A DNA stretch of 64,000 nt. Source: an uncultured Desulfobacteraceae bacterium. GTDB taxonomy: Bacteria > Desulfobacterota > DSM-4660 > Desulfatiglandales > B25-G16. The stretch spans positions 1,968-65,967 of the forward strand of contig CAZZPR010000005.1 of the NCBI GenBank assembly GCA_964655655.1. Reading direction: 5' to 3'. Made by a program: the position numbers and the translations under genes. The notes under the pieces were generated by a model. It ran no database searches. It had not been told where the DNA came from and saw only the letters and a program-made list of their open reading frames with translations. Positions 1 to 42,980 of this stretch are shown in pieces. How positions within the stretch are numbered: the stretch's first letter is position 1; each line of letters opens with the position of its first letter.

Positions 1-1
1 G

Positions 2-892
2 ACATGGGCCGTATTCACCCAGGACGAATGGCGGGTAATTAATCCGCTGACCCTTTATATAGGGCTTCGTTATGATTCCTGGAAGGTCTACGACGGCGCT
101 TCAGGTGTGCCGGGGGCTGAAACCCGATACGCAAGCAATAGAGAATCCAAATTCAGTCCCAAGGTCGCCGCCGTATGGAAGGCCCGTGCCAATACCACCT
201 TGAAAGCCTCCATAGGCCAGGCCTTTCGGCCCCCAACGCTTTACGAACTTTATAGGACCTGGCAATCCTGGGGAAGGACCTATCAAAGCAACCCGGATCT
301 GAAGCCCGAAACCGTGTGGGCCTATGAGATAGGCATAGATCAATTCTTCTTTGACAAAAAGACCCGTCTTTCCCTGACTGGATACCGCAACGACATTGAG
401 GAGCTGATCTATTACCGGACCGTGGGATCGACCAAGATCCGGACCAACGCCGGGAAAGCACGAACCTATGGGCTGGAGTTTGAGACCTCTCAAAGAGTAA
501 CCGATTGGCTTTCGCTTTGGGGTAACCTCACTTTTACGGACACTACAATCACCGAAAACCCCACGGACCCGGCCAGTGTAGACAAGCGGATCACCGGGAT
601 CCCCAAAACCGCCTGGAACGTCGGTTTGGAGACCCAGTACAAATGGTTCAAGGGAAATTTCGTGGGCCGTTATTTCAGCAAGATCTACAATGATACGGAC
701 AACAGGGACACTGAAGAAGGGGTCTACGGTACCTACGAGCCGGCCTTTTTCCTGGACGCCAAGTTGACGGTAAAGCCTTTTAAATGGATAGAGGCCTCTC
801 TCTCCGTGGACAATATCCTGGATGACGAATACTACGAATACTACAAGAGTTATGGGAGGACATTTTTTGCCGAGCTCACATGGCTATACTAA
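2..892 (+). CDS. TonB-dependent outer-membrane receptor, C-terminal barrel portion (5' end outside window)
   Basis: The frame of listed ORF 107..892 stays open back to nt 2 (TWAVFTQDEWRVINPLTLYIGLRYDSWK...). It shows an alternating beta-strand pattern and an aromatic C-terminus (...FFAELTWLY-stop) typical of TBDR barrels. Confidence 0.85.
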   Translation, partial: TWAVFTQDEWRVINPLTLYIGLRYDSWKVYDGASGVPGAETRYASNRESKFSPKVAAVWKARANTTLKASIGQAFRPPTLYELYRTWQSWGRTYQSNPDLKPETVWAYEIGIDQFFFDKKTRLSLTGYRNDIEELIYYRTVGSTKIRTNAGKARTYGLEFETSQRVTDWLSLWGNLTFTDTTITENPTDPASVDKRITGIPKTAWNVGLETQYKWFKGNFVGRYFSKIYNDTDNRDTEEGVYGTYEPAFFLDAKLTVKPFKWIEASLSVDNILDDEYYEYYKSYGRTFFAELTWLY

Positions 893-893
893 C

Positions 894-1949
894 ATGCATG
901 GCCCCGGCCTACTATCACGGGCACTTTTAGTCGGGTGGCTATCTAGCGTACTGTTTTTGACCCTTTTGAAGGGATCAGCTACCGGCGAATCAATGATGGT
1001 AAAGGATGCTTTAGGGCAATACATTCGGGTTACTCCGCCCCTTCAAAGGATTGTGGCCTTGAATTCGGATATCCTGGAAGTCCTTCGCACTCTGAGAGCC
1101 GAAAATCTTGTCGTAGGCGTGTTTTCCGAGATCGTTCGGGAGCGGGAATTCTGGGGAGATTTGGCTGAAAGGCCCAAGGTCGGCAGTTGGCGCGATCCAG
1201 ACATGGAGGCCATTGCCTCCCTCAAACCCGACCTGGTGATCGCCTATGGTTGGAATCCCGGGCCGAGTTTGGAGCGGAATATGGCCCTGTTCGGCATTCA
1301 GGTGCTACGCCTTGACTTCTATAAGGTGAACGAATTGGAACGGGAGGTTCGGATCATGGGACAACTGCTCAAACGAGAAGAGGAGGCAGAGCGCTTCTGT
1401 AACTGGCACCGTAGGCACATCGGAAGGCTCCAGGAAAAAATCGCCGGTACCCCCGATCTTCCGGCCGTATATATTGAAAGCTATACCGATTTCCACGCCG
1501 CAGGTCCGGGTTCGGGAGGCCACGAAATGTGTGTGTTGGCCGGAGGAAGGAATATCGCCGCCGGATTTTCCATCCCCTATCCTCGAGTGACTTCGGAGTG
1601 GGTGGTGGTCCAAAACCCGGAGGCTATCGTCAAAGCAGCCTCTTACGGAAATGGCTATGCCCTCAAGGGTTCTAAGGCCTTAAACCGGCGTCGAGAAGCC
1701 ATCCTGCGGCGTCCAGCCTGGCGCCACATTTCAGCTGTTGCTTCCGGAAATGTCCATGTCATGGACAGCGCCGTCTGGACCGGTCCGCGGGCTGTCGTTG
1801 GGATTGCCCACATGGCCCGATGGTTTCACCACGTGCTTTTCCCCGATCTTGATCCCAAGGCGTTGCACAGGAAATATCTCCAGACCTTTCAAGGCATGGA
1901 CTGTCGCGGTGCGTTCGTGTCAGATCACCTCCAGGAGGCCGGCAGATGA
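894..1949 (+). CDS. Periplasmic substrate-binding protein of a FecB/BtuF-type (siderophore/heme/cobalamin class) ABC importer
   Basis: In-frame ATG at 894, 1 nt after the receptor stop (890-892). The N-terminus looks like a signal peptide (MHGPGLLSRALLVGWLSSVLFLTLL). RIVALNSDILEVL...KPDLVIAY is typical of the PF01497-like family. The start is uncertain because no clear SD is present. Confidence 0.75.
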   Translation: MHGPGLLSRALLVGWLSSVLFLTLLKGSATGESMMVKDALGQYIRVTPPLQRIVALNSDILEVLRTLRAENLVVGVFSEIVREREFWGDLAERPKVGSWRDPDMEAIASLKPDLVIAYGWNPGPSLERNMALFGIQVLRLDFYKVNELEREVRIMGQLLKREEEAERFCNWHRRHIGRLQEKIAGTPDLPAVYIESYTDFHAAGPGSGGHEMCVLAGGRNIAAGFSIPYPRVTSEWVVVQNPEAIVKAASYGNGYALKGSKALNRRREAILRRPAWRHISAVASGNVHVMDSAVWTGPRAVVGIAHMARWFHHVLFPDLDPKALHRKYLQTFQGMDCRGAFVSDHLQEAGR

Positions 1950-2980
1950 GTATCAATTCCGAAATACTCTGCCAGCGCTACAAAGCGCACGCGAGCACAA
2001 GAATACTTTTTATTATTGTCGCTTTTCTTTTGCTTTTTATGGCAACGGCCATCGGGCTTTGTACCGGCGCTTCCGGCATGGGGTTTTGGGAAGTCCTTTT
2101 ATCCCTGGTCAAGGACACCGGTCGCAGCCACAGCATCATCTGGGTGCTGCGGATGCCCCGCATCGCAATGGCAATGCTGGTTGGCTTCGGAATGGGGCTG
2201 GCGGGTTCGGTTTTCCAGGCCATTCTGCGGAACCCCCTAGCCTCCCCATATACCCTGGGAGTGGGGTCTGCCGCGGGGTTCGGGGCGGTTAGCGTGATTC
2301 TTTTCTTCGGTGGCAGCTTTCAAACCTGGCGCGTGGCCTGCGGTGCGTTTCTGCTTTCCCTTTTATCGGCGTTTTTCATTGTTGCGATTGCAAAGATTAA
2401 ACGCGCCTCTTCCGAAACCATGGTTTTGGCAGGCATTGCCCAGATGTTTTTGTTTTCCTCTCTCACATCACTTTTTCAATACATGGGCACCATGGAGCAG
2501 GTACACGAGATCATACTTTGGTTTTTCGGCAACCTTTCCAGGGCAGGATGGACTGAGATCGGCTTAGCCGCGGCAATGATTCTGGTCCCCTTTCCGGCTC
2601 TTTTGTGGCGCGCATGGGATTTCAACCTGCTTTTGTCCGGGGACGAATCCGCCCTGGCCCTTGGAGTAAATGTAAATCGGCTGAGGATGTCAGGGGTCAT
2701 AGCCGCTTCTCTGGTGACCGCCGGCGGCATCTGTTTCACCGGAGTCATCGGATTTGTGGGGCTTGTGGCCCCCCATATCACCCGCATGTTGATCGGAAAC
2801 GACCATCAATTTCTCCTGCCGGCCTCAGGCCTTGTGGGAGCCCTGATTGTTGTGGTTGCGGATACACTGGCCAGGACTCTCTGGGCGCCCCAGGTAATAC
2901 CCATCGGAATTGTGACCTCCTGCATTGGGGTGCCCTTTTTCTTTTATCTTTTGATGAAGCGATCCAAGGAGTATTGGTGA
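1946..2980 (+). CDS. FecCD/BtuC-family ABC importer permease
   Basis: 344 aa multi-TM protein with RMPRIAMAMLVGFGMGLAGSVFQAILRNPLASPYTLGV and a C-terminal IPIGIVTSCIGVPFFFYLL. ATGA overlap with the upstream stop. Confidence 0.9.
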   Translation: MSINSEILCQRYKAHASTRILFIIVAFLLLFMATAIGLCTGASGMGFWEVLLSLVKDTGRSHSIIWVLRMPRIAMAMLVGFGMGLAGSVFQAILRNPLASPYTLGVGSAAGFGAVSVILFFGGSFQTWRVACGAFLLSLLSAFFIVAIAKIKRASSETMVLAGIAQMFLFSSLTSLFQYMGTMEQVHEIILWFFGNLSRAGWTEIGLAAAMILVPFPALLWRAWDFNLLLSGDESALALGVNVNRLRMSGVIAASLVTAGGICFTGVIGFVGLVAPHITRMLIGNDHQFLLPASGLVGALIVVVADTLARTLWAPQVIPIGIVTSCIGVPFFFYLLMKRSKEYW

Positions 2981-3807
2981 TGCTGGAGGTAACGGACCTT
3001 TTCTTCGACTATAATGGCGCATCAGTGCTTGAAAGCATCGGGGCGAGGGTGGGAAAAGGCCGCATTCTAAGCGTAGTGGGGCCCAACGGCGCGGGCAAAA
3101 CCACTTTGCTTAAATGCATCGCCCGCATTCTCAGGCCCAACAGGGGGCATGTTCTTGTGGAGGACCGGGATACGTCCCGCATGCCCCGCATGGAACTGGC
3201 AAAACTCCTGGGATATGTACCACAAAACACGCCCGCCAAATTTCCCGCGACTGTCTTTGAAACGGTGCTTACGGGACGAAGGCCGCATATTGCCTGGCGG
3301 CCTTCCAGAAAGGATTTGGAACGTACCGCCGACATCATTGGGGGGATGAACCTTGCGGATCTGGCCATGAGAGACATGGACCGGCTCAGCGGCGGGCAAA
3401 CTCAGAAGGTGTTGCTTGCCCGGGCATTGGCTCAGGATACGAGCTACCTGTTGCTGGACGAGCCCACTATCAACCTGGACTTGCGACATCAACTGGAAAT
3501 GCTGGAGGTAATCGCTATGCTGGCAAAAAAAAGGGGGATGGGTGTCATGATGGCCATGCATGACCTGAATCTGGCCGCCAGATTTTCTGATACTATCGCC
3601 ATGCTTTACCGGGGCAGGATATTTTGCTCGGGAACGCCGTCCGAGGCGATAACACCGGAGAACATCAGTAAAGTGTACGGTGTGGATGCCGCAGTCCGTG
3701 AGGAAAACGGATATCTTCATGTCCAGCCGCTCCGGTGCACCGATTTGCCACCAACCTGTAAAGATCGAATAAAACTCTACTCAAACGAAAGAAGGAGCAT
3801 TCAATGA
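2980..3807 (+). CDS. ABC importer ATP-binding subunit (FecE/BtuD-like)
   Basis: Internal ATG of ORF 2605..3807, in a TGATG overlap with the permease stop. Walker A VVGPNGAGKTTLLK, signature LSGGQTQKVLLARAL, Walker B LLLDEPT. Confidence 0.9.
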   Translation: MLEVTDLFFDYNGASVLESIGARVGKGRILSVVGPNGAGKTTLLKCIARILRPNRGHVLVEDRDTSRMPRMELAKLLGYVPQNTPAKFPATVFETVLTGRRPHIAWRPSRKDLERTADIIGGMNLADLAMRDMDRLSGGQTQKVLLARALAQDTSYLLLDEPTINLDLRHQLEMLEVIAMLAKKRGMGVMMAMHDLNLAARFSDTIAMLYRGRIFCSGTPSEAITPENISKVYGVDAAVREENGYLHVQPLRCTDLPPTCKDRIKLYSNERRSIQ

Positions 3808-6800
3808 GCACTCGACCAGTTCGAATCGTCTCGATTATGTGGAGTTCCTATCTGCCTGCATTCTTGGCGGCTTCTGAGGGGAGCCCCCATGTGGACCTGA
3901 CCATTTTTTCACAAAAGGAGATCGAAAGCAATGCCGACTGCCTGGAGCCTTTTTGGTCCGCTGCGGCACAGGCCGACGCCATACTTTTATACTGGACCAA
4001 TGATGGGTTCTGGGAGGAGGTCAGCGCCCGTATCGATGAGATGGTTGGGGCCAAGGTCATAGTAACTACCTCCTTTGATCCGGCAAACTGGGGGCGAAAT
4101 TCCACTGTAGATCTTTCGCTATGCGCCCGGGCACATGCCTACATGGCCCAGGGCGGTCAGGAAAACTACCGGCGTTTGCTTGAATTGGTGGCCCACCAAG
4201 TCAATCCTGACATTCCGGTGCAGGACCCCCTGCCTATGCCATGGCAGGGGGTCCTGCACCCGCCGGATCAAACGGTATACGATTCTATAGAAAGCTATCG
4301 CAAAATTCATCCGGCCTTGAATTCTCGTACTGTGGGGCTTTTTTTCTCCCGGCACACCTTTACCAACACCGATGGATCACTGGAGCGAAGCCTCATAGAA
4401 GCACTTGAGGCCCGGGGCCTGGAGGTTCTGCCGGTCTTCTCCCACGGGGTTCCGGACGAAGAGCTCGGATCCCTGGGACCCATTGAGACTGCCCGGTGCT
4501 TTTTTATGAATCCGGAGAATGGCAAACCCCGCATCGACGCACTGGCCAACCTGCACTTTTTCCTACTCGGCCGCGAGGAAAGGGAAGGAAATTCCGAAAT
4601 TGATGTGGCCGGTCAAACTGTGGCCTTTTTTAAGGCACTCAATGTACCGGTCTTTAAACCTGTCGTCTCGTACAGCAAATCCATCCAGGAATGGGAAGAA
4701 GATCCCCAGGGGCTCACCGCGGAGGTCAGCTTCGGCATTGCCATGCCGGAATTCGAGGGGAGTATCGAGCCGATTATCATTGCGTGCAGCCGCAAGCTGA
4801 ACCATGAGCGGACCGACACGGTATTCGAAATCCGGGAAATCATCTCCGAGCGTGTGGCGCATATCGCCGAACGTATAGCTCGATGGGTGCGCCTGGCTTC
4901 CAAGCCGCCTGCTGAACGTAAAGCAGTTTTCGTGTTTCATAAAAACGAATGCGCAGGGCTGGAGGCAAATGTGGGTGGCGCAGCCGGGCTCGATTCAGGG
5001 GAAAGCGTGGTGCGCGTTCTCCAACAAATGGAGTCAAAGGGGTATAATATTGAAAATATCCCCGAGTCCGGGGAAGCCTTAATGCACACCATTTTAGACC
5101 GCAAGGCCATCGCCGAGTTCCGCTGGACCACGGTTGACGAAATCGTCTCCAAAGGCGGCCACCTGGCCCTGCTGGACAATGAGACCTACCGAAAGTGGTT
5201 TGATGAATTGCCCACAAAGGCCCGATCCGCTCTAATCGGTTCCTGGGGAGAGCCCCCGGGGCGGAAAATGAAGGGGGTACCGCCGAGCATGGTGCTGGAC
5301 GGAAAGCTGGTCATTACCGGGCTCAATTTCGGTAATGTAAATGTGATCATGCAGCCCAAGCGCGGCTGCGCCGGATCTCGCTGCGACGGTCAGGTATGCA
5401 AGATTCTCCACGATCCGGACACTCCTCCGCCGCATCAATACATCGCCACGTACATGTATATGGATCGCGTATTCGGCGCCGATGTGGTAATCCATGTGGG
5501 CACCCACGGCAACCTTGAGTGGCTGCCGGGCAAGGGAGCCGGGCTCTCAGCCGCCTGCTGGTCGGATATAGCCACCGGCAATGTGCCTCATTTATATATC
5601 TATAATGCGGACAATCCGGCCGAAGGGGTGGTAGCCAAGCGTCGCAGCTATGCCACCCTGGTGGATCACATGCAGGCGGTTATGAGCACGTCCGACACAT
5701 ACGAAGGCTTGGAGGAATTGGAAGGTCTTCTGGATGAGTATCACCGTGCCAAGTCGTCAAATCCGGCCCGGGTTCATCAGCTAAAAGACCTAATTCGAGA
5801 AACTATCGAACGTTGTAATCTTGACGACGAAATTTCCGCAACCAATCCGGATACCTTCGAGGATTTGGTCGTCCGATGCCATGAAATCCTCTCCGGGATA
5901 AAAAACAGTCAGACCCGGATCGGTATGCATACTTTTGGCCAGCTGCCCGAGGGCGAGGACCGTGCCGAAGTGATTAATACTATCATGAGGTTCGACAGCG
6001 CCAGCGACATCAATACACGCCGGCTTATTTTTGACTCCTGGGGTGAGGATATTTTTAGCGGTTTAAAAGCACCCGGGTCCCGCGGTAAAAACGGCAAAAC
6101 CTACGGGCAGCTCTTGTTTGATGCAGACCGCAAGGCTAAGACCATGATTGCAGGTTTTATCAAAGGGCAGGATTTGTCCGTTGTGATGAAGCATCTAAAT
6201 GTTGCTGTAATCGACAGCACATTAAAGGAGCGCTTCGAGCGTTTTGACTCCCTGGTGCGCGAAATCGATCAGCGCATCGCCGATTCCGACGAGATCGGCG
6301 CCCTGCTCAAGGCAATGAATGGCGGCCATGTGCCTGCTGGTCCAGCCGGTTACATCTCCCGGGGGCGCTATGATATCTTGCCCACCGGCCGCAATTTTTA
6401 CAATGTCGACCCCAGCCGAATTCCCACAAAAGCGGCCTCCCGGGTGGGCGTCCAATTGGCGGAGGCCCTTTTGAAGCGTCATCTAAACGAAGAGGGCCGC
6501 TATCCCGAATCGGTTGGAATGGTATGGCTGGCTGCGGATATTATGCGGGCCGACGGCGAGCAGATCGGCCAGGTACTTCATCTATTGGGTGCACGGCCCA
6601 AGTGGAAGGCAAACGGCCAGGTGGATGGTTTTGAGATCATCCCGGCAGAAGAGCTGGGGCGCCCCCGAATTGATGTTAATATCCGGGTGTCCGGCATCAC
6701 TCGTGACTGCTTTCCGGATAGCGTAAAGTATGTAGATCAGGCGGTCCAGGCAGTGGCCATGCTGAATGAAGCGCCGGAACAAAATTTTATCCGCAAGCAT

Positions 6801-7703
6801 ATCGTCAGGCAGGCAATGCAACAGGGTGTATCAATTGAGGACCAGGAACAGTTCCGGAAGCTGAGCTATCGTGTCTTTTGCGCCCAGCCGGGGGTTTACA
6901 AGGCAGGGGTAAGTTTAGCGGTCTATGCATCAGCCTGGAAGGCCGAAGCCGATCTGTCCGATATCTATGTCTTCTGGAACGGTTATGCCTACGGCAGCGG
7001 GGAGTCCTACGGCGTGCAGGCACATAATGAACTGATGGAAAACCTGCGCCGGGTGGAGGTCACATTTGACAAGCACATTTCAGACGAGGGAGATTTTCTC
7101 AACTGCTGTGGCTATTACAGTAATTACGGCGGCATGACCATGGCTGCCAAGTCGATTTCCGGCAAAACCCCCAAGACCTACTATGGGGATACCCGCGACC
7201 CAGCCAATGTGGCGGTGACCGATTTTGCCGAGGAAATGCGCCGTGTGGTGCGCTCCAAACTCTTGAACCCCAAATATATCGAGGGCATGAAGGCACACGG
7301 CTATAAAGGTGCCGGTGATTTGAACAAACGCATAGGCCGCGTCTATGGCTTCGGTGCCACTACAGGCCAGGTGGATAACTGGATTTTTGATGAAATCGCA
7401 GAAACCTTTGTTCTGGAGTCAGAGATGAAGGCCTGGTTTGAAAAGGTAAATCCCTGGGCCTTGGAAGAGATCGGCCGCCGCTTATTGGAAGCCCAGAGCA
7501 GGGACATATGGAGACCGGATCCGGAACTTCTCGAACGGCTCAAAGAGTCCTATCTGGAAGCCGAGGCCGCGCTGGAGGAAACCATGGGCGATGTAAAAGG
7601 CGATTTCCAGGGAGGTTCCGTCGACGTGGTGACGTCAGAAGAGATAGAGAATTGGAAAGCCGCAATGAACACGGTCAAGGAAAAAATGGGAAGAGAAGAA
7701 TAA
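3804..7703 (+). CDS. cobN: CobN/BchH-family large chelatase subunit (class I, ATP-dependent chelatase)
   Basis: 1299 aa with the CobN hallmark stretch [14 protein letters not shown] and overall CobN-like length. ATGA overlap with the ATPase gene. Confidence 0.9.
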
Positions 7704-7705
7704 CC

Positions 7706-9721
7706 ATGCCGATTAACACCTTTCCGTTTGCGGCCATAGTTGGGCAGGAGAAACTAAAACGCGCCCTGATTTTAAATGCCGTAAACCCGGCCATCGGCGG
7801 TGTTCTGATCCGGGGCGAAAGAGGCACTGCCAAATCAACGGCGGTGCGCGCACTGGCCGCCCTGCTGCCTGAGATCGATGTAGTAAAGGGCTGCCCGTAT
7901 AGCTGCGATCCGGACCAGCCACGAGACTTCTGTGATGAATGTCGAAATAATGCCCACCGGATCCAAGCCGTGCGGCGGCGGATTCGGGTAATCACATTGC
8001 CTCTCAATGCCACCGAGGACAGGGTAGCGGGGGGAATTGATTTTAACCTAGCAGTAAAACAAGGCATCCGGGTATTGCAGCCGGGTCTTTTGGCAAGGGC
8101 CCACCGGGGTATTTTGTATGTTGATGAGGTTAATCTGCTGGATGATCATATAGTGGATATTATCCTGGATGCATCTGCATCCGGCCGGAATACGATTGAA
8201 CGGGAAGGCATCTCCTTTGTGCATAAATCTCATTTCATATTGGTGGGGACCATGAACCCGGAAGAAGGCGAGCTGAGACCTCAGTTGCTGGACAGATTCG
8301 GGCTGTGTGTGGAGGTTGCCTCTGAAAGGGATTTGGAAAAACGGACAATTCTGATGGTGCAAAGGGAGATATACGACACAGATCCGCAGGGGTTTATCCG
8401 GCAATTCGCGGAGATGAACAAAAAAATAGCGGGACAGATCATTGCCGCTCGAAAGTTTTTGAAAGACGTAAGGTTGGCCGGGGAATTGAGAATGTTGATC
8501 TGCGAGCTTTGCACGGAAAACAATGTTGCCGGGCACCGCGCTGATCTGGTTATCGAGCAGGCTGCCAGAGCACTGGCCGCCTTAAGGGGACATCGTGATG
8601 TAACAGTAGACGATATCCGGGAGGTGGCATTCCTGGCACTTTCACATCGAAGACGGGATGCGGCGCCGCCTCCTGATCATGGTCACGATCATAAACATCA
8701 AGATACGCCGGAAAAGGAGCAAGGCGAGACTCAAGATGAAGGGGAAAATAAACAGGATGACCAACAACCGCAAGAGGGGCAAAGCCCCTGGCCAGAAAAA
8801 ATGAATCCTTGGGAGGACAAAGAGGGGGAAAATTCCGACAATAAAGAGGAAGAAAAAAGCAGTGGAGACCGCTCCCTTGAACAGATTTTTGAGGTAGGCG
8901 AGACCTTTAAGGTAAAAAAAATTGCTGCACCCAGGGACCGCGTTTTCCGCCGTGGGTCGGGGCGTCGATCCCGCACCCGGATCTCTCAGAAGCAGGGCCG
9001 TTATGTGAAAAGTACTGTTAACAAGAATACAGGCGATGTGGCCCTGGATGCCACCCTACGGAGAGCAGCCCCCTACCAGCTCCGCAGGAAAAAGGCAAAC
9101 GGCCTGAAGGTGGTCCTTTGGCTAGAAGATATCCGCGAAAAGATCCGGGAAAAGCGGATTGGCAATTTTCTTCTCTTTGTGGTGGATGCCAGCGGCTCTA
9201 TGGGTGCCAGGAGCCGCATGGTAGCTACCAAGGGTGCCATCATGTCCCTGCTTTTGGATGCCTATCAAAAACGGGACCGCGTTGCCATGGTTTCCTTTCG
9301 TAGAGAGAACGCCGTGGTGAATCTGCCGCCTACCGCATCAATCGAATTGGCTGCCGACCTGCTAAAAGAGATGCCGGTGGGAGGGCGTACCCCCCTTTCC
9401 GCCGGTATAGCCAAATCTTATGAAGTGCTGCGCAACTATCTCTTGCGGGAGCCCGCTGCCCGGCCCATCACCATCATCATTACGGACGGCAAAGCCAACA
9501 TGGCCCTTGGAGGGGAAAAGCCGCTTAATGAGGCAATCGCATTTGCCGAGCGGCTTTCCATGGATGAACGCACCCGGTTCATTGTCGTCGACACCGAGGC
9601 CAAGGGCCTGGTGGCGTTCGGCTTGGCCCAAAGGCTGGCTAAGGCAATGAACGCTCACTATTTCAAGATCGAAGACCTTAAAGCAGACACCCTGCTCAAT
9701 ATTGTAAAAGGAGAAAAATAA
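7706..9721 (+). CDS. chlD: ChlD/BchD-like chelatase subunit (AAA+ N-domain, acidic linker, C-terminal vWA domain)
   Basis: ATG at 7706, 2 nt after the cobN stop (internal start of ORF 7508..9721). [14 protein letters not shown] and [13 protein letters not shown] match the AAA+ domain. An acidic His/Pro/Glu-rich linker spans about 8655-8880. MIDAS-like motif [12 protein letters not shown]. Confidence 0.9.
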
Positions 9722-10768
9722 ATGTCCAGGCAACACATCTATCCATTTACAGCCATTGTGGGCCAGGAAAAGATGAAACTGGCCTTGGTATTAAATATTA
9801 TCAATCCAACTCTTTCGGGCGTTCTGATCCGGGGCGAAAAGGGCACGGCCAAGTCCACGGCCGTGCGCTCCCTTGCACAAATTCTGCCCGCCATTGAGGT
9901 AGTTAAAGACTGCCCCTTTCAGCGCTCCCCGGAAGAATCGGAAGAGGTATGCCGGGAATGTGTCAATAGCGAATGCAGAGGCAAAGTCCTGAATAGCGAG
10001 CCGGCAGAAACCGTACGCCGTGACATCCGGGTGATTGAGCTTCCCGTGGGTGCGACAGAAGATCGGGTTGTGGGCACCATGGACCTGGAATACGCCCTTA
10101 AAAAAGGTGAGAAGCAGGTGGAGCCCGGTATCTTGGCGGCGGCCCACCGGGGCATTCTCTACGTGGACGAGGTGAACCTCCTGGATGACCACGTGGTGGA
10201 CGTGTTGCTCGATTCGGCAGCCATGGGGGTTAACAGCATTGAACGGGAAGGGGTAAGTTTTACCCACCCGGCACGGTTTACCCTGGTGGGGACCATGAAC
10301 CCGGAAGAAGGCGAGCTGAGGCCCCAGTTGCTGGACAGATTCGGGCTGTGCGTCCACATTGAGGGCATCAATACCCCTGAAGACCGGGTGGCCGTCATGG
10401 AAAGGTGCGCCGCCTTTGATGATGATCCGGCAAGCTTTTGTTCCCAGTGGCATGAAAAGTCCGAGATACTTGGTGAAAAAATCGAAGGGGTAATGGATAT
10501 CTATCCCCAAGTCAGCATCAGCCGCGAACTACTTTATGAAATCGCAAAGTATTGTCTGGAGGTGGAGGTAGACGGCCACCGGGGGGACATCATCATCTTA
10601 AAGACCGCCAAGACCCTTGCGGTCTACAATGGACGCACTCATGTGATCAAGGAGGACATCGAAACGGCAGCCGAGCTGGCCTTGCCCCATCGCATTCGGC
10701 GGCAGCCGCTTCAGGATGTCGTGGTGGACGTGGAGCAAGTGCGACGCCAAAAGCAAGCCCGGCGATGA
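9722..10768 (+). CDS. chlI: ChlI/BchI-like AAA+ chelatase ATPase subunit
   Basis: 348 aa with [27 protein letters not shown] and [20 protein letters not shown]. The ATG directly abuts the chlD stop. Confidence 0.92.
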
Positions 10769-10830
10769 GGCGGCGGGCGGCCCTGTGCAATCTGCGGCCG
10801 GATGATGGTGCTCGAGAGAAGGAAGATAGG

Positions 10831-11691
10831 ATGGGAAATGGAGGGGGGAAGTTCGTGATTCGCATTAAAAAACTGGAAAAAGTATATGGCAACACTGCGG
10901 CGCTTAAGGGTGTTGATTTGAACATAAAGAGGGGCGAGCTTTTCGCATACCTCGGCCCCAACGGTGCCGGCAAAACCACTACCATCCGCATATTGACCGG
11001 GGTTACCCGGCTGACGGCGGGCAAAGGGATGCTTAACGGCTATGATATCGAAAAACAGGGCCTTGCAGCTAAAAATCAGTATGGATTGGTTCCACAGCAC
11101 ATCAATCTGGATACCGAACTGACGGTTTATGAGAATTTGCGAGTTCACGGCTGGCTCCATCAAATGTCACGCAGTATTATTGGGCAGCGCATGAGTGAGC
11201 TGCTGAATTACATAGAGCTGGATGAAAAACGCTACACACTTATCAAGAAGCTTTCCGGGGGCATGAAAAGGCGTGTGATGATTGCCAGGGCCCTTCTGCA
11301 TGCGCCTAAGATCCTGTTTTTGGATGAACCCACTGTTGGCCTGGATGCCAGCATCCGCCGGCGTATCTGGGCACTCATAAAAAAAATTCAGCAGGACGGT
11401 GTAACCATCTTTCTCACCACCCATTACATCGAAGAGGCTGAATTTCTGGCCCAGCGGGTGGCATTTATCGACAAAGGCAAAATCGTGGCCCTGGATACAC
11501 CGCATAACTTGATGAATGGTATCGGTACCTGGGCAGTGGATAGATTTAAACCAGGCGGTATGGGGACCCTCTATTTTAAAACTCAACAAGAGGCCAAACA
11601 ATACGCTGCCAGGGGTCAAAATGGGTTTGCCGTGCGGCGTGTCAATTTAGAGGATGCCTTTTTGAAAATGACGGGTAAAAAAGTGAAATGA
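10831..11691 (+). CDS. ABC-2-type exporter ATP-binding subunit
   Basis: Internal ATG of ORF 10552..11691, preceded by GAGAGAAGGAAGATAGG. Walker A YLGPNGAGKTTTIR, signature LSGGMKRRVMIARAL, Walker B LFLDEPTVGLD. Confidence 0.88.
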   Translation: MGNGGGKFVIRIKKLEKVYGNTAALKGVDLNIKRGELFAYLGPNGAGKTTTIRILTGVTRLTAGKGMLNGYDIEKQGLAAKNQYGLVPQHINLDTELTVYENLRVHGWLHQMSRSIIGQRMSELLNYIELDEKRYTLIKKLSGGMKRRVMIARALLHAPKILFLDEPTVGLDASIRRRIWALIKKIQQDGVTIFLTTHYIEEAEFLAQRVAFIDKGKIVALDTPHNLMNGIGTWAVDRFKPGGMGTLYFKTQQEAKQYAARGQNGFAVRRVNLEDAFLKMTGKKVK

Positions 11692-12425
11692 TAAGGGGTT
11701 GGAAAGCCATCTATTTCCGGGAAATGCTGATATTGAGGCGGCGCTTATCCAGGCTGGTCAGTGCCTGGTCGGTTTCGCCGCTGCTCTATCTCATCGCCTT
11801 TGGCTATGCCGTGGGAAAGGGCATTACCGTGCAAGGGCACTCTTACATCGAATTTCTAATTCCAGGCCTTGCGGCCATGGCCAGCATGACCCAGGCCTTT
11901 GCCATCAGCAGCGAGATCAACATAGCCCGGTTTTACTGGCACATTTTTGAAGAGTTTCAGGCGGCACCAATCAGCAATGCAGCCTATGTGCTGGGCGAGG
12001 TGATGGCCGGAATGACCCGGGGTTTGCTCGCCGGTGGCCTGATTCTCTTCCTGGGCATGCTTTTTGGCGTCGTTCTTTCGTATAACGGTTTCTTTTGGCT
12101 GGCCTTTTTACTCAACAGCTTTGTCTTTTCCTCCCTGGCAGTGGGAGTTGCGATGCTGGTCAAATCACACGCGGATCAGGCGATGATGAACAGTCTTATT
12201 ATCACGCCCATGGCATTTCTTGGGGGCACCCTCTTCCCCATCGAACGTGTTCTGGGGTGGGCCCAGCAATTGCTTTATTTATTGCCTTTGACCCACGCTT
12301 CTGATGCGATGAGAGTATCATCATTTGGGGGGACGCCGGGAATCCACGGGTATTTAATTCTTGCCGGTACCGGTGTTTCAACTTTTGTCTTTGCGATTAT
12401 GGCTGTCAATAAGGCAAGGGATTAG
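11688..12425 (+). CDS. ABC-2-type exporter permease
   Basis: 245 aa with about 6 hydrophobic segments. ATGA overlap with the preceding ATPase gene. Confidence 0.85.
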   Translation: MIRGWKAIYFREMLILRRRLSRLVSAWSVSPLLYLIAFGYAVGKGITVQGHSYIEFLIPGLAAMASMTQAFAISSEINIARFYWHIFEEFQAAPISNAAYVLGEVMAGMTRGLLAGGLILFLGMLFGVVLSYNGFFWLAFLLNSFVFSSLAVGVAMLVKSHADQAMMNSLIITPMAFLGGTLFPIERVLGWAQQLLYLLPLTHASDAMRVSSFGGTPGIHGYLILAGTGVSTFVFAIMAVNKARD

Positions 12426-12830: not shown

Positions 12831-12840
12831 AATTTTGAGA

Positions 12841-13278
12841 ATGAGAAACATTCGCAAAAATAAAAATACAGCTAAAGGCAGAATGTTAACCTCCCAGCGG
12901 CAGCTTCTCCTTAAATTGATCAGGCAAGCCGGAAGTCATATCAGTGCAAAGGAGCTTTATAACCAGGCCGCTAAAAAGAACGAATCCATAAGCCTGGCTA
13001 CCGTTTACCGGAATCTTCGTTTGTTCAAACGAATCGGCCTTATCGATGAAAGGAGGTTAGGAAGTCTGCACACATGTTACGAGATAAAAGATTCGCACGA
13101 TCATCAGCACTTGATATGCAGGTCTTGCGGCAAGGTAATTGAATTCGAAAATCCTATTTTTAGCAGAATTGTTGACCAGGTTAGAGAGGATTACGGCTTT
13201 GATATTACAAAGGTTGATATGTATATGGAAGGATATTGCCAGGAATGCAACCCCTATAATGTAAATTCGGAAAGATAA
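12841..13278 (+). CDS. Fur-family metalloregulator (Fur/Zur/PerR-type; metal specificity not determinable)
   Basis: LTSQRQLLLKLIRQAGSHISAKELY matches the wHTH. DSHDHQHLICRSCGKVIEF and CQEC supply His-rich and CxxC...CxxC sites. Start at ATG 12841, or TTG 12835. Confidence 0.85.
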   Translation: MRNIRKNKNTAKGRMLTSQRQLLLKLIRQAGSHISAKELYNQAAKKNESISLATVYRNLRLFKRIGLIDERRLGSLHTCYEIKDSHDHQHLICRSCGKVIEFENPIFSRIVDQVREDYGFDITKVDMYMEGYCQECNPYNVNSER

Positions 13279-13400: not shown

Positions 13401-14051
13401 ATGGATGATATATCTTTTTCCGACATAATTATAATTTCATGTGGCATCCTGAGCCCGGAATTAAACTACTTGAGAGAAACCGAATTATTTGATGCACAAC
13501 ATGTTGTTTGCACCCCTCCAGGACTTCACGAAAGGCCAAAGGAGTTGGAAAGACAACTCACCCAGAAAGTAAACATTGCCAAAGAAAAATCGGATAAGGT
13601 CATAGTGGTCTACGGGGGAAAATTCTGTTATGTCAATGCTGACAAGCCAACACGTACCCTGGACTCCATGCTCGATGAATTAGGGACTAACGTCAAGAGG
13701 ATACAGGCAACGCATTGTCTGGATGCACTGGCAAGCGAAGAGGAGCGTGAAAGGATTGCCCGGGAAATGGCAGGCGGTGAAAAGATTTGGTGGATGTCTC
13801 CGGGCTGGGTTAAATTCCGGCATCAGGTTTTTAAAGACTGGGACAAAGAGCTCGCCGAGGAAAAATTCTCCAGTTACACCGGCGGTGCAGTTGTACTGGA
13901 TGCTATCGGGTTCATGGAAAAATACAAAAAGGATCATCCAGAAGAGCTAATGGAATATTCGGATTGGATGGGGATACCGATTAAAAACTATCCAATAACA
14001 CTGGATCGATTAAAATCTCTTCTTCGCGATCAAGCAATCGCTCTTCAGTAA
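13401..14051 (+). CDS. Small conserved hypothetical protein, possibly DUF1638 family
   Basis: 216 aa ORF with a good SD (AAAGGGGGG 5 nt upstream). The N-terminal IIIISCGILSPELNYL pattern recalls DUF1638. The family call is from memory only. Confidence 0.6.
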   Translation: MDDISFSDIIIISCGILSPELNYLRETELFDAQHVVCTPPGLHERPKELERQLTQKVNIAKEKSDKVIVVYGGKFCYVNADKPTRTLDSMLDELGTNVKRIQATHCLDALASEEERERIAREMAGGEKIWWMSPGWVKFRHQVFKDWDKELAEEKFSSYTGGAVVLDAIGFMEKYKKDHPEELMEYSDWMGIPIKNYPITLDRLKSLLRDQAIALQ

Positions 14052-15998: not shown

Positions 15999-17282
15999 CT
16001 ACCCACGGAAATACTCCTTGACCTGTTTGATGGCACAGTACTTTCCGCACATGGTGCATACGTCCTCCTCTGCAGGAGGGCTTTTCTTCCTGTATCTTCT
16101 GGCCTTATCCGGGTCTATTGCAAGTGCCATCTGCTCATCCCAGTTCAGATCCTTTCTTGCAAGGCCCATCTTTTTGTCCTTTTCCAAAGAAAGGGGGTTT
16201 CCCCTGGCTATGTCCGCGGCATGTGCAGCTATCTTAGAGGCGACAACCCCGTCTCTTACATCCTTTATACCGGGAAGGGACAGGTGTTCGCTGGGGGTTA
16301 CATAGCAGAGAAAGTCCGCACCCGCCCATCCGGCAACCGCACCTCCTATGGCGCAGGCTATATGGTCATAGCCTGCTGCTATGTCTGTGACCAGGGGACC
16401 GAGCACGTAGAAGGGGGCCTGGCTGCAAAGGGTTTTTTCAAGTTCTATGTTTGCCCTTATCTGGTCAAGGGGGATGTGGCCGGGGCCCTCTATCATTACC
16501 TGGACGTCCTGCTGGAAGGCCAGGTCCCTTAGGTGTCCCAGGATGGTAAGCTCGTGTATCTGGGCCCTGTCTGTTGCATCTGCCAGGCATCCGGGCCTGA
16601 GGCCGTCTCCCAGGCTGAGCACGGTGTCGTATTTTTCGGCTATTGAAAGGAGCCTGTCGTAGTACTGGTAAAGGGGGTTTTCCCTCTGGTGGTAGAGCAT
16701 CCAGGTGGTAAGGAATGCGCCTCCCCTGCTTACTATGTTGAGGTCCCTTCCCTGGCTTTTTAGAAGCTCCAGGCCGGCCATGGTAAGGCCGCAGTGTACG
16801 GTTATAAAGTCCACCCCGTCTGCAGCGTGTTTTTCTATTACCTCGAAGAGTTTGTCAGGGCTCATGTGTATGAGGCCTCCTGACTGGTCCACGGTCTCAA
16901 TTACTGCCTGGTATATGGGAACGGTTCCCAAGGGAACCGTGGATGAGCGGAGCATGGTCCTTCTTATGTGATCCAGGTCTCCACCTGTGGAAAGATCCAT
17001 CACCGTGTCTGCGCCTGCGTCGATGGATGTTTTTAGTTTTTCAAGCTCTTCTGCAAGGTTTACATGATCGGAAGAGGTTCCTATGTTGGAGTTTACCTTG
17101 ATCAGAAGTCCCTGGCCTATGCCGCATGGGTTGGCCTCTTTGTGAGCCGGGTTTGCCAGAATAACGGCGTTTCCCAGGGCCACACTTTTGGCAAGGGTGG
17201 AGGGCTCCAGTCCTTCTTTTTCCGCCACATAGGTTATCTCCGGGGTAAGGTTGCCTGATTTTGCCTTTTGTTGTTGGGTCAT
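15999..17282 (-). CDS. thiC: Phosphomethylpyrimidine synthase (short, anaerobe-type ThiC)
   Basis: VMDLSTGG, ITVHCG, EGPGHIP, and the C-terminal cluster motif CTMCGKYCA. The ATG at 17282 overlaps the thiD stop (TAATG). Confidence 0.92.
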   Translation of the reverse strand: MTQQQKAKSGNLTPEITYVAEKEGLEPSTLAKSVALGNAVILANPAHKEANPCGIGQGLLIKVNSNIGTSSDHVNLAEELEKLKTSIDAGADTVMDLSTGGDLDHIRRTMLRSSTVPLGTVPIYQAVIETVDQSGGLIHMSPDKLFEVIEKHAADGVDFITVHCGLTMAGLELLKSQGRDLNIVSRGGAFLTTWMLYHQRENPLYQYYDRLLSIAEKYDTVLSLGDGLRPGCLADATDRAQIHELTILGHLRDLAFQQDVQVMIEGPGHIPLDQIRANIELEKTLCSQAPFYVLGPLVTDIAAGYDHIACAIGGAVAGWAGADFLCYVTPSEHLSLPGIKDVRDGVVASKIAAHAADIARGNPLSLEKDKKMGLARKDLNWDEQMALAIDPDKARRYRKKSPPAEEDVCTMCGKYCAIKQVKEYFRG

Positions 17283-18079
17283 TAAATGTTTTCTCCTTTC
17301 ACGCCCCCTTGCGGCGGTTGCACACACCCGGGGCCTTTTCCCAGGCCCAAGCCTTTGCTTATTGCCTTTCTCGTATATTGACGGGCCATGTCCACGCCTT
17401 TTACAATATCATAGCCCATGGCCAGAAATACAGCCAGTGCAGCGGAAAATACGCATCCGCTTCCATGGGTATGTTCCGTGTCTATTTTCAGCCCTTTAAA
17501 ACTATAAATACGCCCTTTATGTAATAATATATCCGTGCATTCCCTTTCAAGGTGCCCTCCGGTTATCACTACGTTTTCCGGGCCCAAGTCCTTGATTGCC
17601 TTTGCCGCCTCCTCCATGTCATCCAGATTTTTTATAGACTGCCCGGAAAGGGTACCCGCCTCCTCCAGGTTTGGGGTTACGACCGTTGCAAGGGGCAAAA
17701 GCCTTTCTTTCATTGTACCTAAGGCATCCTGTTCCAGCAAGGGCCTGCCGGTAGAGGAAAAAAAGACCGGGTCCACTACAAGGAAGGGAATTTCGCATTT
17801 CTCAACCGCATCTGCCACGGCCGACAGGATCTCGGTGTTGTAAAGCATACCGGTCTTTGCCGCCTGGGGAAACATATCCCCTGCCACAGTTAAAATCTGA
17901 GCTTTCACGAAACCAGGGGGCACATCGTGTATGGCACTTATCTCCAGGGAATTCTGTGCGGTCAAAGAGGTTATAGCAGTAAGTGGATGGGCCTTCAGCG
18001 CAAAAATAGTCTTCAAATCCGCCTGTACACCGGCTCCGCCGCCGCTGTCCGAACCAGCTATTGTCAATACCCTAACCAT
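17282..18079 (-). CDS. thiD: Hydroxymethylpyrimidine/phosphomethylpyrimidine kinase
   Basis: VLTIAGSDSGGGAGVQADLKT and TPNLEEA, followed by GGHL...HGSGCVFSAALA. Confidence 0.9.
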   Translation of the reverse strand: MVRVLTIAGSDSGGGAGVQADLKTIFALKAHPLTAITSLTAQNSLEISAIHDVPPGFVKAQILTVAGDMFPQAAKTGMLYNTEILSAVADAVEKCEIPFLVVDPVFFSSTGRPLLEQDALGTMKERLLPLATVVTPNLEEAGTLSGQSIKNLDDMEEAAKAIKDLGPENVVITGGHLERECTDILLHKGRIYSFKGLKIDTEHTHGSGCVFSAALAVFLAMGYDIVKGVDMARQYTRKAISKGLGLGKGPGCVQPPQGGVKGENI

Positions 18080-35107: not shown

Positions 35108-36310
35108 TCAAATGCTGAACAGCTTCTCCAATATATTAACGTTTTTATCCCAGGAATAATTCTCTACAGCAAATTTTCTGCATCGAGAGGAAACCTCCTT
35201 CCACTGGCGAGGATTATCCCGGTATACCTTCCAGGTATCTATAATCAATTCCGCCATTGATTCTGGTGTAGTATCCTTAAAGAGAAAGTTTGGATCAAGT
35301 CTGTCAAGAATTTCTGCCGTTCCACCTACGGGCGTCCCCAACACAGGGATACCTGAGGCCAATGCTTCTAAAGTCACAAGGCCAAAACCCTCCAGCTCCT
35401 TGGTAGGAAGTATAAAAATATCGGCTGCACGATAGTAATCCGGAAGGTCCTCGTCTGGTATAAAGCCAACAAACCTAATGTAGTCTCTAACTCCTGCTTT
35501 CTGACTCAACGAAATAAGAGTTTTCTGGAGTGGACCTTTTCCACCCAGAATAAGATAACTATCCGGCACCACTTTAATTACCTTTTTTATTGCATATATA
35601 AGATTTTCAAGCCCCATTCTGGGTTCCAGGTCTCTTACAGTTAGCAATACCATCTTGTCCTCGGGAATATTTAGACGACGCCTTACTTCTACCCTATTAA
35701 TGGCAGGGAAAAACTTCTGACTATCAACCCCTCCAGGCATGATCTCAATTTTGGCTGAGGGTATTCCATAAACATTCCGCAATTTTCCAAGAGTGAATCG
35801 GCTTAAAACAGCAATCTTATCAGATGCATTTAGAGCCCTTTTCTCAACCCATTTTCGCGCTTGGATATTCAAAAAATACAACACTCTTCTTGTGATTCCC
35901 TTTGGTTTGGGATTTCTCGATTGAAATTCCTCAAATGAAAGGGAGTGGCAGGTATAGATTTTTTTTGCTTTTTTCACGGCAGAGGAATGAATGATGGCAA
36001 AAGCGGAAAAAGGCTGATGAAAATTGATACAATCAAAAAAATACTCATTCTGGAGGCGCTCAAAGAGTTTTCTACAGTTTGATAACGTTGTTTTGATAAA
36101 GGTAAGATCATTTTTTTGATTGATATAGTACCTCCATTCCCGAACTCCCTTAACCATTTCACTATTGGATTTATGATCTTTTAGCTTTCTGGTAAGGATA
36201 TGCACATCATGGCCCCGCTTGGCTAAAAGGATACTTTCCTCAAATAACACCCTTTCTGATCCTGAGCTTGCGTTACTTATTGAAACATCTGTTACAAATA
36301 GAATATTCAA
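35108..36310 (-). CDS. Glycosyltransferase family 4 (GT-B, retaining type)
   Basis: MNILFVTD...SGSERV at the N-terminus and PTKELEGFGLVTLEALASGIPVLGT at the C-terminus. TTG start after AAAGGATGA. Confidence 0.85.
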   Translation of the reverse strand: MNILFVTDVSISNASSGSERVLFEESILLAKRGHDVHILTRKLKDHKSNSEMVKGVREWRYYINQKNDLTFIKTTLSNCRKLFERLQNEYFFDCINFHQPFSAFAIIHSSAVKKAKKIYTCHSLSFEEFQSRNPKPKGITRRVLYFLNIQARKWVEKRALNASDKIAVLSRFTLGKLRNVYGIPSAKIEIMPGGVDSQKFFPAINRVEVRRRLNIPEDKMVLLTVRDLEPRMGLENLIYAIKKVIKVVPDSYLILGGKGPLQKTLISLSQKAGVRDYIRFVGFIPDEDLPDYYRAADIFILPTKELEGFGLVTLEALASGIPVLGTPVGGTAEILDRLDPNFLFKDTTPESMAELIIDTWKVYRDNPRQWKEVSSRCRKFAVENYSWDKNVNILEKLFSI

Positions 36311-36525
36311 AATTCATCCTTTAAACTCGAACAACCATCCATCTGCCTTCAGCAATTTTATATAGATGAGTTTCGATAAATTTGGAAAGATTAATAAAAA
36401 TGAATACATACCTGGATCAAGCTTCAGTTTCTGGTGAATTCATAATGATTGTTTTGCAAGACACCTGTCTGGAAATATTCTATATAAATAAATACTCCAA
36501 TTACATTTTATGACGTACCTTATGA

Positions 36526-37548: not shown

Positions 37549-37718
37549 AATTCATTTATCCCTTCTACCTTGTGGACCTGAAACAAAAAAAACGTCCCAA
37601 TAAATATCTTGGCCATCATCGAGTTTCCTTCCTAAAAAATATATGAAAGGCTTTACAGACAATTAAACATTAAGCTTCTTATTCTATTATTACACTTTTC
37701 ATTTTATCATAATAAAAA

Positions 37719-38855: not shown

Positions 38856-39283
38856 TTCCCCAGAGCTATTAAAATACTTGGCCGAATCAAATTTAAACTA
38901 AGCTATTTCAGGCTAGCTTGTTGTAACCCTAAGGTCGTACAGAAAATCCTCTGGAAAAGGATCACCTATGCTGCCTCAGTTTATAATTGTCTCATACAGC
39001 TTATTATAAATTTAGACAGCCTTCCAAATAAACGAGGAAGGCTTATTTAGGCCAATAAGAAGTGGGCTTGAAAAAACCTTCTTCCTTACCCCTTGACTGC
39101 TACTCCAAAGATCCCCTAATATCATATTTATTTCATGCATATGTCTGGGCTGGACATTGAAACTCCAAAACAACGCTTCTATATCAGTGTTCCGACTAAA
39201 GCACATTTTGCATCAACTTTGCGCCGCAAGAGCTTTATAATTCATTAGAAAACAATGGCTAAACATGGGCATGAGAAAGTAAA

Positions 39284-39961: not shown

Positions 39962-40067
39962 AATAATAGGGTAACCGTTTTACCAAAACAAGCTAGTTAC
40001 AGGCTGAATTTTTGATTAGCGAAAAATTTGACAATTAAAAAAATCCCTGTCGGACAATAAAATATAC

Positions 40068-42972: not shown

Positions 42973-42980
42973 TTTTTAAA

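Follow-up and report, generated by a model that had tools for sequence, protein, structure and literature searches.

What does a CobN-type chelatase do in a strict anaerobe, when its genes stand between those of an outer-membrane importer and those of an exporter? The function of CobN homologues in anaerobes and archaea that lack late-insertion B12 synthesis or chlorophyll synthesis is an acknowledged open question (PMC12583661, PMC3087415, PMC3403914). It is raised again by a stretch of 64,000 nucleotides from an uncultured Desulfobacteraceae bacterium (contig CAZZPR010000005.1, positions 1,968 to 65,967), which is called the window here. Positions 1-12425 of the window are occupied by nine co-directional genes on the + strand, as read from the open reading frame (ORF) listing and directly from the junctions. 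They encode the end of a TonB-dependent receptor (TBDR), a periplasmic binding protein (PBP), the permease and ATPase of an ATP-binding cassette (ABC) importer, a class I chelatase with CobN-, ChlD- and ChlI-like subunits, and an ABC-2 exporter pair (Table 1). We show that importer, chelatase and exporter are inherited together as one uptake/chelatase/efflux operon in strict anaerobes. We tentatively prefer to read this operon as a nickel/cobalt-acquisition module, which would import a metal-macrocycle complex, process it with the chelatase, probably by removing the metal, and export the leftover ligand.

The genes are tightly chained. The receptor stop (TAA, 890-892) is followed by the ATG of the binding protein at 894. 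Overlaps of the ATGA type join the binding-protein and permease genes (1946-1949), the importer ATPase gene and cobN (3804-3807) and the two ABC-2 genes (11688-11691), and a TGATG overlap joins the FecCD permease and ATPase genes (2978-2982). The cobN stop (TAA, 7701-7703) is separated by two nucleotides, cc, from the chlD ATG at 7706, and the chlD stop (TAA, 9719-9721) abuts the chlI ATG at 9722 (TAAATG, 9719-9724). A spacer of 62 nt lies between the chlI stop (TGA, 10766-10768) and the ATG of the ABC-2 ATPase gene at 10831, upstream of which there is a Shine-Dalgarno-like AGAAGGAAG stretch. An initial annotation, made from the sequence without database searches, had described this chain of overlaps and short gaps up to the start of the ABC-2 pair, and each such junction was found as described when re-read. 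The same annotation had called a receptor, a FecB/FecCD/FecE-type importer, a chelatase and an ABC-2 exporter, and these calls are matched by the Pfam and NCBIfam scans, which agree with the assignment of all nine genes. The window start cuts the receptor gene, and the operon start and its leader thus lie outside the window. The terminator scan listed none in the 410 nt from the last stop (12425) to the following Fur-family gene.

The arrangement is conserved well beyond this contig. A protein search gave ~90 orthologues of the large subunit with 64-78% identity, almost all of them from Desulfobacterota (Desulfobacca, Desulfolithobacter, Desulforhabdus, Desulfobacula, Desulfosarcina). From reference genomes, 31 orthologous loci were taken (loci are designated here by L numbers) and compared by tblastn with the nine window proteins. 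The gene order of the window is kept in at least 10 independent genomes, at 57-82% protein identity. It is identical over all nine genes in L004, L007, L014, L022, L024 and L025, contains small insertions in L002, L005 and L020, and agrees over the readable part of L030. In the rearranged loci L016, L029, L021 and L012 the ABC-2 pair is still found behind ChlD/ChlI. This recurrence across genomes shows that the arrangement is not due to chance. Related layouts were seen in Bacillota, in one unclassified metagenome-assembled genome and in archaea (Table 1). The survey of homologous neighbourhoods that had been proposed with the initial annotation thus reveals importer/chelatase/exporter synteny across phyla, which argues for functional coupling of the three parts. 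Recurrent neighbours are extra TonB receptors, binding proteins and ExbB/ExbD/TonB/DUF3450/TPR sets, with DUF3842 in four loci; cob/cbi genes are not recurrent around the 31 orthologous loci. Similar clusters have been mentioned in passing in the literature, as on plasmid pSZ77 of G. lovleyi, where the role was called unknown (PMC3403914), and TDE_0746-0750 of T. denticola has a matching gene layout, the comparison being by layout alone (PMC12724145).

In sequence, the large subunit is nearest to CobN. It passes the NCBIfam model NF004646, 'cobaltochelatase subunit CobN' (1538 bits, cutoff 1468), narrowly misses TIGR02257 (807 bits, cutoff 822), and lies below the cutoffs of the remaining CobN equivalogs and of the BchH/ChlH models TIGR02025 (751 bits, cutoff 829) and NF009140 (705 bits, cutoff 1300). 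Compared with the PDB, it matches M. tuberculosis CobN with 583 bits, Brucella CobN with 504, ChlH with 482 and HmuS with 360. Among its partners, the ChlD-like protein exceeds the cutoff of TIGR02442, 'putative cobaltochelatase' (822 bits, cutoff 779), and has a P-loop (GERGTAKS), a Walker B motif (LYVDE) and a metal ion-dependent adhesion site (MIDAS; DASGS at residue 494). The ChlI-like protein reaches 427 bits with the BchI-ChlI model (cutoff 467) and has a P-loop (GEKGTAKS) and the Walker B motif LYVDE. The HxGxHG motif of the superfamily is present in the large subunit as HVGTHG (H568), but it is superfamily-wide and does not discriminate among the families. In the cryo-EM structure of Brucella CobSTN two Co2+ ions were placed at H554, E593 and D1100 (bioRxiv 10.64898/2026.07.21.739949). 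In phmmer alignments these residues correspond to H568, E607 and C1102 of the window protein, C1101 being adjacent. The pair C1101-C1102 stands where the DSDD of canonical CobN has 'SD', with the local reading NCCGYYS. In this second active-site motif, canonical CobN reads REHD(L/I)xDSDDY(Y/F)Q, ChlH reads SEISLTDVSHYFD and HmuS reads LSLDHxxEF.

The Cys-Cys pair is invariant in all motif-covering sequences among the ~90 orthologues, and also in a clade of 47-53% identity, where the motif is DEYDLFGCCCYF. An exhaustive HMMER search against protein representatives, made with residues 530-1299 of the large subunit, found that the nearest ~16 representatives (to ~45% identity) are almost all of the Cys-Cys type, and that canonical DSDD proteins appear from ~40% identity. 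Proteins of the Cys-Cys type are also found in Spirochaetota, Bacillota and Ca. Alkanophagales/Methanomicrobia. In L152, L153, L154, L158 and L156/L157 (Table 1), too, a CobN of this type is encoded next to Peripla_BP_2/FecCD/ABC importer genes. Together, the signature and the break in identity place the large subunit outside the core of the canonical CobN clade. Judged by these alignments, it defines or joins an uncharacterised sister subfamily of CobN with a softer predicted metal site. The gene family is widespread, is already catalogued as CobN by homology and is experimentally uncharacterised; for the Cys-Cys clade the blanket label 'cobaltochelatase CobN' is unproven. A literature search for the motif string CCACGAAGG gave nothing relevant.

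Three characterised systems can be compared with the complex. The class I cobaltochelatases (CobN-CobS-CobT of Pseudomonas/Brucella and the actinobacterial CobN-ChlID, TIGR02442) likewise combine a CobN subunit with an AAA+ motor and an adaptor bearing a von Willebrand factor A (vWA)/MIDAS domain. The closest solved structure is that of M. tuberculosis CobN, and two of the three Co2+-site residues are kept (H568 and E607). However, the third, D1100, is replaced by Cys, with a second Cys beside it, throughout the clade, and the genes of the operon are found amid importer and exporter genes, not cob genes, without a B12 riboswitch and in strict-anaerobe hosts. The Mg chelatase BchH/ChlH-BchI-BchD likewise has ChlI/ChlD-type partners and a six-domain large subunit. 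In ChlH, however, the motif is DVSHYFD (at the position of His-1174) where the window protein has NCCGYYS, the score with the BchH model is below cutoff, and there is no photosynthesis context here. The third system is HmuS of the hmuYRSTUV loci of Bacteroidota. It too belongs to the CobN superfamily, has its gene next to that of a TonB-dependent receptor in an anaerobe, and keeps the superfamily His. HmuS is anchored in the membrane at its N- and C-termini, contains a Met-rich insert, has heme ligands in its head/neck, and works with NADH and without AAA+ partners (PMC12583661). The window protein shows none of these features and comes with a full ChlD/ChlI motor. It is predicted to be soluble, as no transmembrane-like segment was found (no 19-residue window with mean hydropathy >1.6), and its Met content is 2.6%, without enrichment. 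The HmuS motif LSLDHxxEFMGG (His-1209/Glu-1212) is absent, in an alignment that we infer from the GG anchor, and no HmuY hemophore gene was seen. The impression recorded earlier that this architecture differs from hmu is therefore borne out. In its sequence features, the complex can be filed in the CobN superfamily, yet it fails defining features of canonical cobaltochelatase, of ChlH and of HmuS alike.

In their four-component architecture and their Pfam families the transport components agree with the BtuB-BtuFCD and HmuTUV/ShuTUV-type importers. All of them miss the equivalog cutoffs set for transport of B12, heme, ferric citrate and siderophores, and their regulation is different. The receptor fragment in the window is below the cutoff of all NCBIfam receptor models (best partial match TonB-hemin, 109 bits), and a full-length orthologue (L004:4870-7089) gives 209 bits with TonB-hemin (cutoff 317) and 182 with TonB-B12 (cutoff 600). 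The binding protein is also below all NCBIfam cutoffs (BtuF model 61 bits, cutoff 234), and its relatives in the PDB are weak and mixed (YiuA-like 6b2x, 54 bits; BtuF, 46; ShuT-like, 41). The permease reaches 236 bits with the BtuC model (cutoff 461); the importer ATPase reaches 132 with BtuD (cutoff 281) and matches best the heme ABC ATPase model (219 bits, cutoff 261). A ligand for the receptor and the binding protein was sought in NCBIfam and the PDB, and the matches were weak and divided among heme, B12, siderophores and YiuA. On the export side, the ABC-2 ATPase scores 275 bits with the DrrA subfamily (cutoff 312), and comparison of the ABC-2 permease with the PDB gave no informative relative.

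Regulation was read from related loci. The initial annotation had proposed looking for a cobalamin riboswitch and a Fur box upstream of the receptor. The window lacks the 5' end of the operon; upstream regions of ~5 kb were scanned with Rfam 15 in 14 related loci. No cobalamin riboswitch (RF00174) was found upstream of the operon in these 14 loci or anywhere in the window, while a genuine one was detected elsewhere in L004, which served as a positive control. No Rfam family at E<=10 was found over the L015 leader. Likewise, no canonical Fur box (GATAATGATAATCATTATC, <=5 mismatches) is consistently placed upstream of the receptors in the orthologous loci. These loci show that the operon is not wired to B12 or Fur control.

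Instead, two structured leaders were found, here called elements A and B. Element A is a long, terminator-like hairpin whose base is conserved (RCCACGAAGG...YUUCGUGGY), with a variable, covarying inner stem, a loop that is often xGAAG, and a U7 tract. It precedes receptor, CobN, ExbB and DUF3842 genes, often in several copies per locus. Some 50-110 nt before it, a promoter of the consensus TTGACA-N17-TAnnnT, for which no common operator is seen, leads into a small hairpin. This small hairpin occurs in 77 of the 143 regions upstream of element A, as against 10 of 143 shuffled ones, and has a loop of the form N(1-3)GAA with a closing C-G pair (for example GCGGC-AGAA-GCCGC). Element A often ends ~20 nt before the start codon and therefore sits in the 5' untranslated region like an attenuator. 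We consider it a candidate for an attenuator, or for an aptamer embedded in a terminator, within a nickel/cobalt uptake regulon. The motif GAAG of the small hairpin occurs again in element A itself, at its base and in its apical loop.

Element B is a structured leader of ~125 nt between element A and the first gene, with 14 matches to a covariance model. Each match stands immediately before a first gene for a TonB receptor or CobN, although for L051, L084 and L123 this identity of the gene is unconfirmed. One stem of element B, of 11 bp, carries a conserved YCCGGYCAARG loop; there is a second stem as well, and the stretches UAUAnCAC and GUCAAU are conserved. Both main helices are well supported: 92% of cells are paired, against ~49% in slid controls, and compensatory changes occur in 16 of the 21 pairs. 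We regard element B as a candidate for a new riboswitch or cis-regulatory RNA. A third helix was discarded, as no consistent alignment was obtained, and anti-Shine-Dalgarno pairing, suggestive in only about half of the cases, is not claimed. Neither element has a match in Rfam 15, and neither was found in the window, whose operon lacks its 5' end.

The nickel/cobalt link comes from the company that element A keeps. A pattern scan of reference genomes gave at least 120 matches, the organism names listed being mostly Desulfobacterota. Among the matches listed, the genes behind element A encode DUF4198 proteins (at least 14), TonB receptors (at least 7), CbiM/NikM (at least 7, some fused to DUF4198), S-components of energy-coupling factor (ECF) transporters (at least 6), FmdE-like proteins (at least 6), a methyltransferase (at least 6) and DUF3842 (at least 5). 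Rarer among them are NikA-like substrate-binding proteins and FecCD permeases (at least 4 each), and binding proteins and porins (at least 3 each). Firmicute matches of the hairpin pattern were set aside; they lie near genuine cobalamin riboswitches, their gene content is uninformative, and some are perhaps chance terminators. The ECF operons behind element A contain no CbiN, and their CbiO ATPases have His-rich tails (for example HEHVHRHGEIIHRHLHFHPLPHKHEE). Following the Rodionov 2006 classification, we take this combination to denote Nik-type ECF systems. The same ECF operons also encode small periplasmic proteins with His as the residue that directly follows the predicted signal peptide. 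A literature search for a nickel riboswitch with DUF4198 gave nothing relevant.

In addition, a nikR gene (L153:1800-2219; ribbon-helix-helix domain and NikR_C, HxHx5C site) is located directly upstream of the cluster in L153; neither a nikR gene nor a NikR operator was found in the window or in the 31 orthologous loci. The leader common to Nik-type transporters and the nikR adjoining the L153 cluster point to a nickel/cobalt rather than an iron/heme or B12 context, and we infer that the module belongs to a nickel/cobalt-acquisition regulon. The NikR-controlled uptake systems (Nik(MN)QO/NikKL ECF transporters, NikABCDE and FrpB4-type receptors) can be compared with it: orthologous operons have a leader in common with CbiM/NikM, DUF4198 and NikA-like genes, and nikR adjoins the cluster in L153. 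We know of no described nickel uptake system that contains a class I chelatase. In L153:2219-2351 two GTAGCAYGAATTTTAAAAARGTAA copies bracket the receptor promoter, and these may be NikR operators.

According to the reading that we tentatively prefer, the TonB receptor, the binding protein of the BtuF/FhuD class and the FecCD/ATPase importer would bring a bulky chelate into the cytoplasm. The cargo would be a metal-macrocycle complex, such as a nickel or cobalt tetrapyrrole, a corrinoid-like compound or another tight chelate. The CobN-ChlD-ChlI complex would then spend ATP to extract or swap the metal, and the ABC-2 pump would expel the metal-free ligand. By analogy, the chelatase would be an ATP-driven counterpart of the action of HmuS on heme, which is the dechelation precedent in the CobN superfamily (PMC12583661). 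Metal extraction is favoured because it explains the universal link to an importer, the conserved exporter, the co-regulation with nickel/cobalt genes, the absence of biosynthetic neighbours and the thiolate site.

Several points weigh against metal extraction. To our knowledge, all characterised enzymes driven by ChlI/ChlD or CobS/CobT motors are metal insertases. The NCBIfam equivalog models name the subunits cobaltochelatase, and sequence does not reveal which ligands the receptor and the binding protein take. Nickel is linked to the operon indirectly, through leader motifs in common and through a single nikR that adjoins the cluster in a paralogue clade of 47% identity. The scan that gave the at least 120 element A matches has the hairpin built into its pattern and had no scrambled pattern as control. 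The regulation of the window's own operon, whose 5' end is missing, lies outside view. In L155, Cys-Cys-type CobN paralogues stand beside TP_methylase, CbiC and NifH-like genes, which fits a biosynthetic, metal-inserting role. Finally, HmuS, the one known dechelatase, has no AAA+ partners, is membrane-bound and depends on NADH (PMC12583661).

The L155 neighbourhood and the precedent of all known ChlID/CobST-coupled enzymes lead to the alternative that survives best, a possible but doubtful one in our estimation, namely that the complex is a true ATP-driven cobalto- or nickel chelatase of high affinity, which the cell would switch on as Co/Ni runs short. The importer would then supply a metal chelate or a metal-free or incomplete corrinoid, the metal would be loaded into a tetrapyrrole that is made or salvaged, and the ABC-2 pump would be accessory. 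The scores above the NF004646 and TIGR02442 cutoffs and the conserved H568 and E607 agree with this, and co-regulation with Ni/Co uptake would also suit an enzyme needed under metal limitation. However, strict-anaerobe Desulfobacterota are generally known to use early insertion by CbiK/CbiX, and neither recurrent cob/cbi genes (31 loci) nor a B12 riboswitch (14 loci) accompany the operon. Insertion also leaves the conserved exporter without a role, and the change of Asp to Cys makes the site unlike that of characterised cobaltochelatases.

In a non-tetrapyrrole version, a Ni/Co metallophore would be imported, the CobN-family complex would strip the metal, and the ABC-2 pump would recycle the apo-metallophore. 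The nickel/cobalt context (shared leader and nikR) serves it as well as it serves metal-macrocycle import, the exporter suits ligand recycling, and the methyltransferase and unknown proteins of the shared-leader regulon could make such a compound. We nevertheless find it improbable, as every characterised CobN-superfamily member binds a tetrapyrrole and no conserved metallophore-synthesis genes stand beside the operon in the 31 orthologous loci. Heme-iron harvesting of the hmu kind, in which heme would be imported, the CobN homologue would remove iron and the exporter would remove protoporphyrin, is also quite unlikely. It draws on the best sub-threshold NCBIfam matches, to a heme/hemoglobin receptor and to a heme ABC ATPase, on the Fur-family gene directly downstream of the operon, on the HmuS precedent and on the speculation of the T. 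denticola authors that their similar cluster draws iron from hemin (PMC12724145). But the transmembrane anchors, Met-rich insert, LSLDHxxEFMGG motif and head/neck heme ligands that define HmuS are all absent, no canonical Fur box is consistently placed upstream of the orthologous operons, and the Fur-family neighbour is not conserved. Moreover, the genes with which the operon has its leader in common are those of CbiM/NikM, DUF4198 and NikA-like proteins and not iron genes, and the neighbour in L153 is nikR, not fur. Ordinary B12 uptake joined to canonical late cobalt insertion, the btuB-btuFCD-cobNST scenario that the initial annotation had set against its salvage proposal, matches the domain architecture (BtuB/BtuFCD with CobN/ChlID) and the NCBI annotation names, but is very unlikely, given a large subunit in a clade separate from the canonical DSDD proteins with an altered metal site, transporter components that are all under the BtuB/BtuF/BtuC/BtuD equivalog cutoffs, anaerobic hosts, no recurrent cob/cbi genes, and no RF00174 in the 14 loci by a search that detects a genuine one elsewhere in L004.

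The operon makes the question of CobN in anaerobes testable, as it offers a Cys-Cys signature, a fixed set of partners and a regulatory context that points to Ni/Co. If metal is harvested from macrocycles, this would be a new trace-metal route in sulfidic habitats, where free Ni/Co is scarce, and the first reverse use of the chelatase AAA+ motor. If metal is inserted instead, anaerobes would keep an ATP-driven, high-affinity alternative to CbiK/CbiX. Elements A and B are, in either case, candidate new families of cis-regulatory RNA. The boldest form of the extraction proposal is somewhat unlikely. It would make the operon the first ATP-driven class I chelatase that extracts or swaps metal, a Ni (or Co) 'dechelatase' of sediment anaerobes with two new leader RNAs. 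Metal would then be mined from imported F430, nickel porphyrins or corrinoid debris, the empty ligand would be pumped out, and one of these two RNAs may be a new riboswitch that senses metal or a tetrapyrrole.

Table 1. Coordinates and gene orders of the operon, its downstream neighbours, the leader elements and related loci (window positions unless an L number is given).
Feature	Location	Strand	Remarks
TonB-dependent receptor, C-terminal 296 residues	2..892	+	PF00593 TonB_dep_Rec_b-barrel, E=3e-49
Periplasmic binding protein, BtuF/FhuD class (Peripla_BP_2), signal-peptide-like N-terminus	894..1949	+	PF01497, E=6e-23
FecCD/BtuC-type ABC importer permease	1946..2980	+	PF01032, E=3e-88
ABC importer ATPase	2980..3807	+	PF00005
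Class I chelatase large subunit, CobN family, 'Cys-Cys' subfamily, 1299 aa, predicted soluble	3804..7703	+	PF02514 (CobN-Mg_chel), 1201 bits
ChlD-like adaptor: AAA+ domain, acidic/Pro-rich linker, vWA domain	7706..9721	+	TIGR02442
ChlI-like AAA+ motor subunit	9722..10768	+	PF01078 + AAA_lid_2
ABC-2-type exporter ATPase, DrrA/NodI-like	10831..11691	+	PF00005
ABC-2 exporter permease, last operon gene	11688..12425	+	PF01061 (ABC2_membrane), E=2e-22
Fur-family regulator	12835-13278	+	Below all Fur/PerR/Zur cutoffs; own TTGACA-type promoter near 12800
DUF1638 protein	13401-14051	+	Follows Fur-family gene
Element A, examples	L004:2477-2535, 3387-3445, 4546-4605; L015:4549-4610; L010:9671-9725; L018 (three copies)		
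Element B, examples	L024:1478-1600; L004:4671-4793; L014:2560-2681; L015:4676-4795; L010:9777-9912; L009:9783-9915; eight more		
CbiO-type ATPases of ECF transporters behind element A	L078:4889-5710; L128:5338-6150; L140:6182-6916		
52% relative	L152		TBDR-PBP-FecCD-ABC-CobN-ChlD-ChlI
48% clade	L154		ABC2-ABC2-PBP-FecCD-ABC-TBDR-CobN-ChlI-ChlD
47% clade	L153		nikR, then TBDR-ChlD-PBP-FecCD-ABC-CobN
Bacillota	L158		CobN-PBP-ChlD-ChlI-FecCD-ABC
Ca. Alkanophaga archaea	L156/L157		Two CobN paralogues flanked by binding proteins

Some of the related loci have features of their own. In the archaeal loci (L156/L157:8320-22436) the Peripla_BP_2 proteins beside the two CobN paralogues carry dockerin domains, and a cohesin protein is encoded nearby, which suggests that the binding proteins are anchored at the surface. 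L155 (10001-23882) contains four CobN-family ORFs together with MotA/ExbB-like and DUF2149 genes, TP_methylase, CbiC, ABC-2 permeases and the NifH-like gene. It is probably from a Gram-positive organism, because its binding proteins bear Cu_amine_oxidN1 domains. DUF3842 proteins (~140 aa) are encoded beside the clusters and behind element A (L004:2555-2977, L025:850-1266, L018, L023 and at least 5 loci of the pattern scan), and DUF3842 is likely an unrecognised member of the element A regulon.

The Fur-family and DUF1638 genes that follow the operon in the window were not counted as parts of it, as other genomes do not keep them beside the cluster. Ordinary chromosomal genes make up the rest of the window, among them thiC/thiD, Mla, a polysaccharide cluster and SMC. 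No thiamine pyrophosphate riboswitch accompanies the thiC-thiD pair (15999-18079, - strand), the Rfam search at gathering thresholds being empty over the whole 64 kb. The operon (1-12000) has 52-55% G+C, whereas much of the window has 34-49%, the lowest values being in the polysaccharide-synthesis cluster (compared region 36000-52000). This contrast may reflect horizontal acquisition of either the operon or the polysaccharide region.

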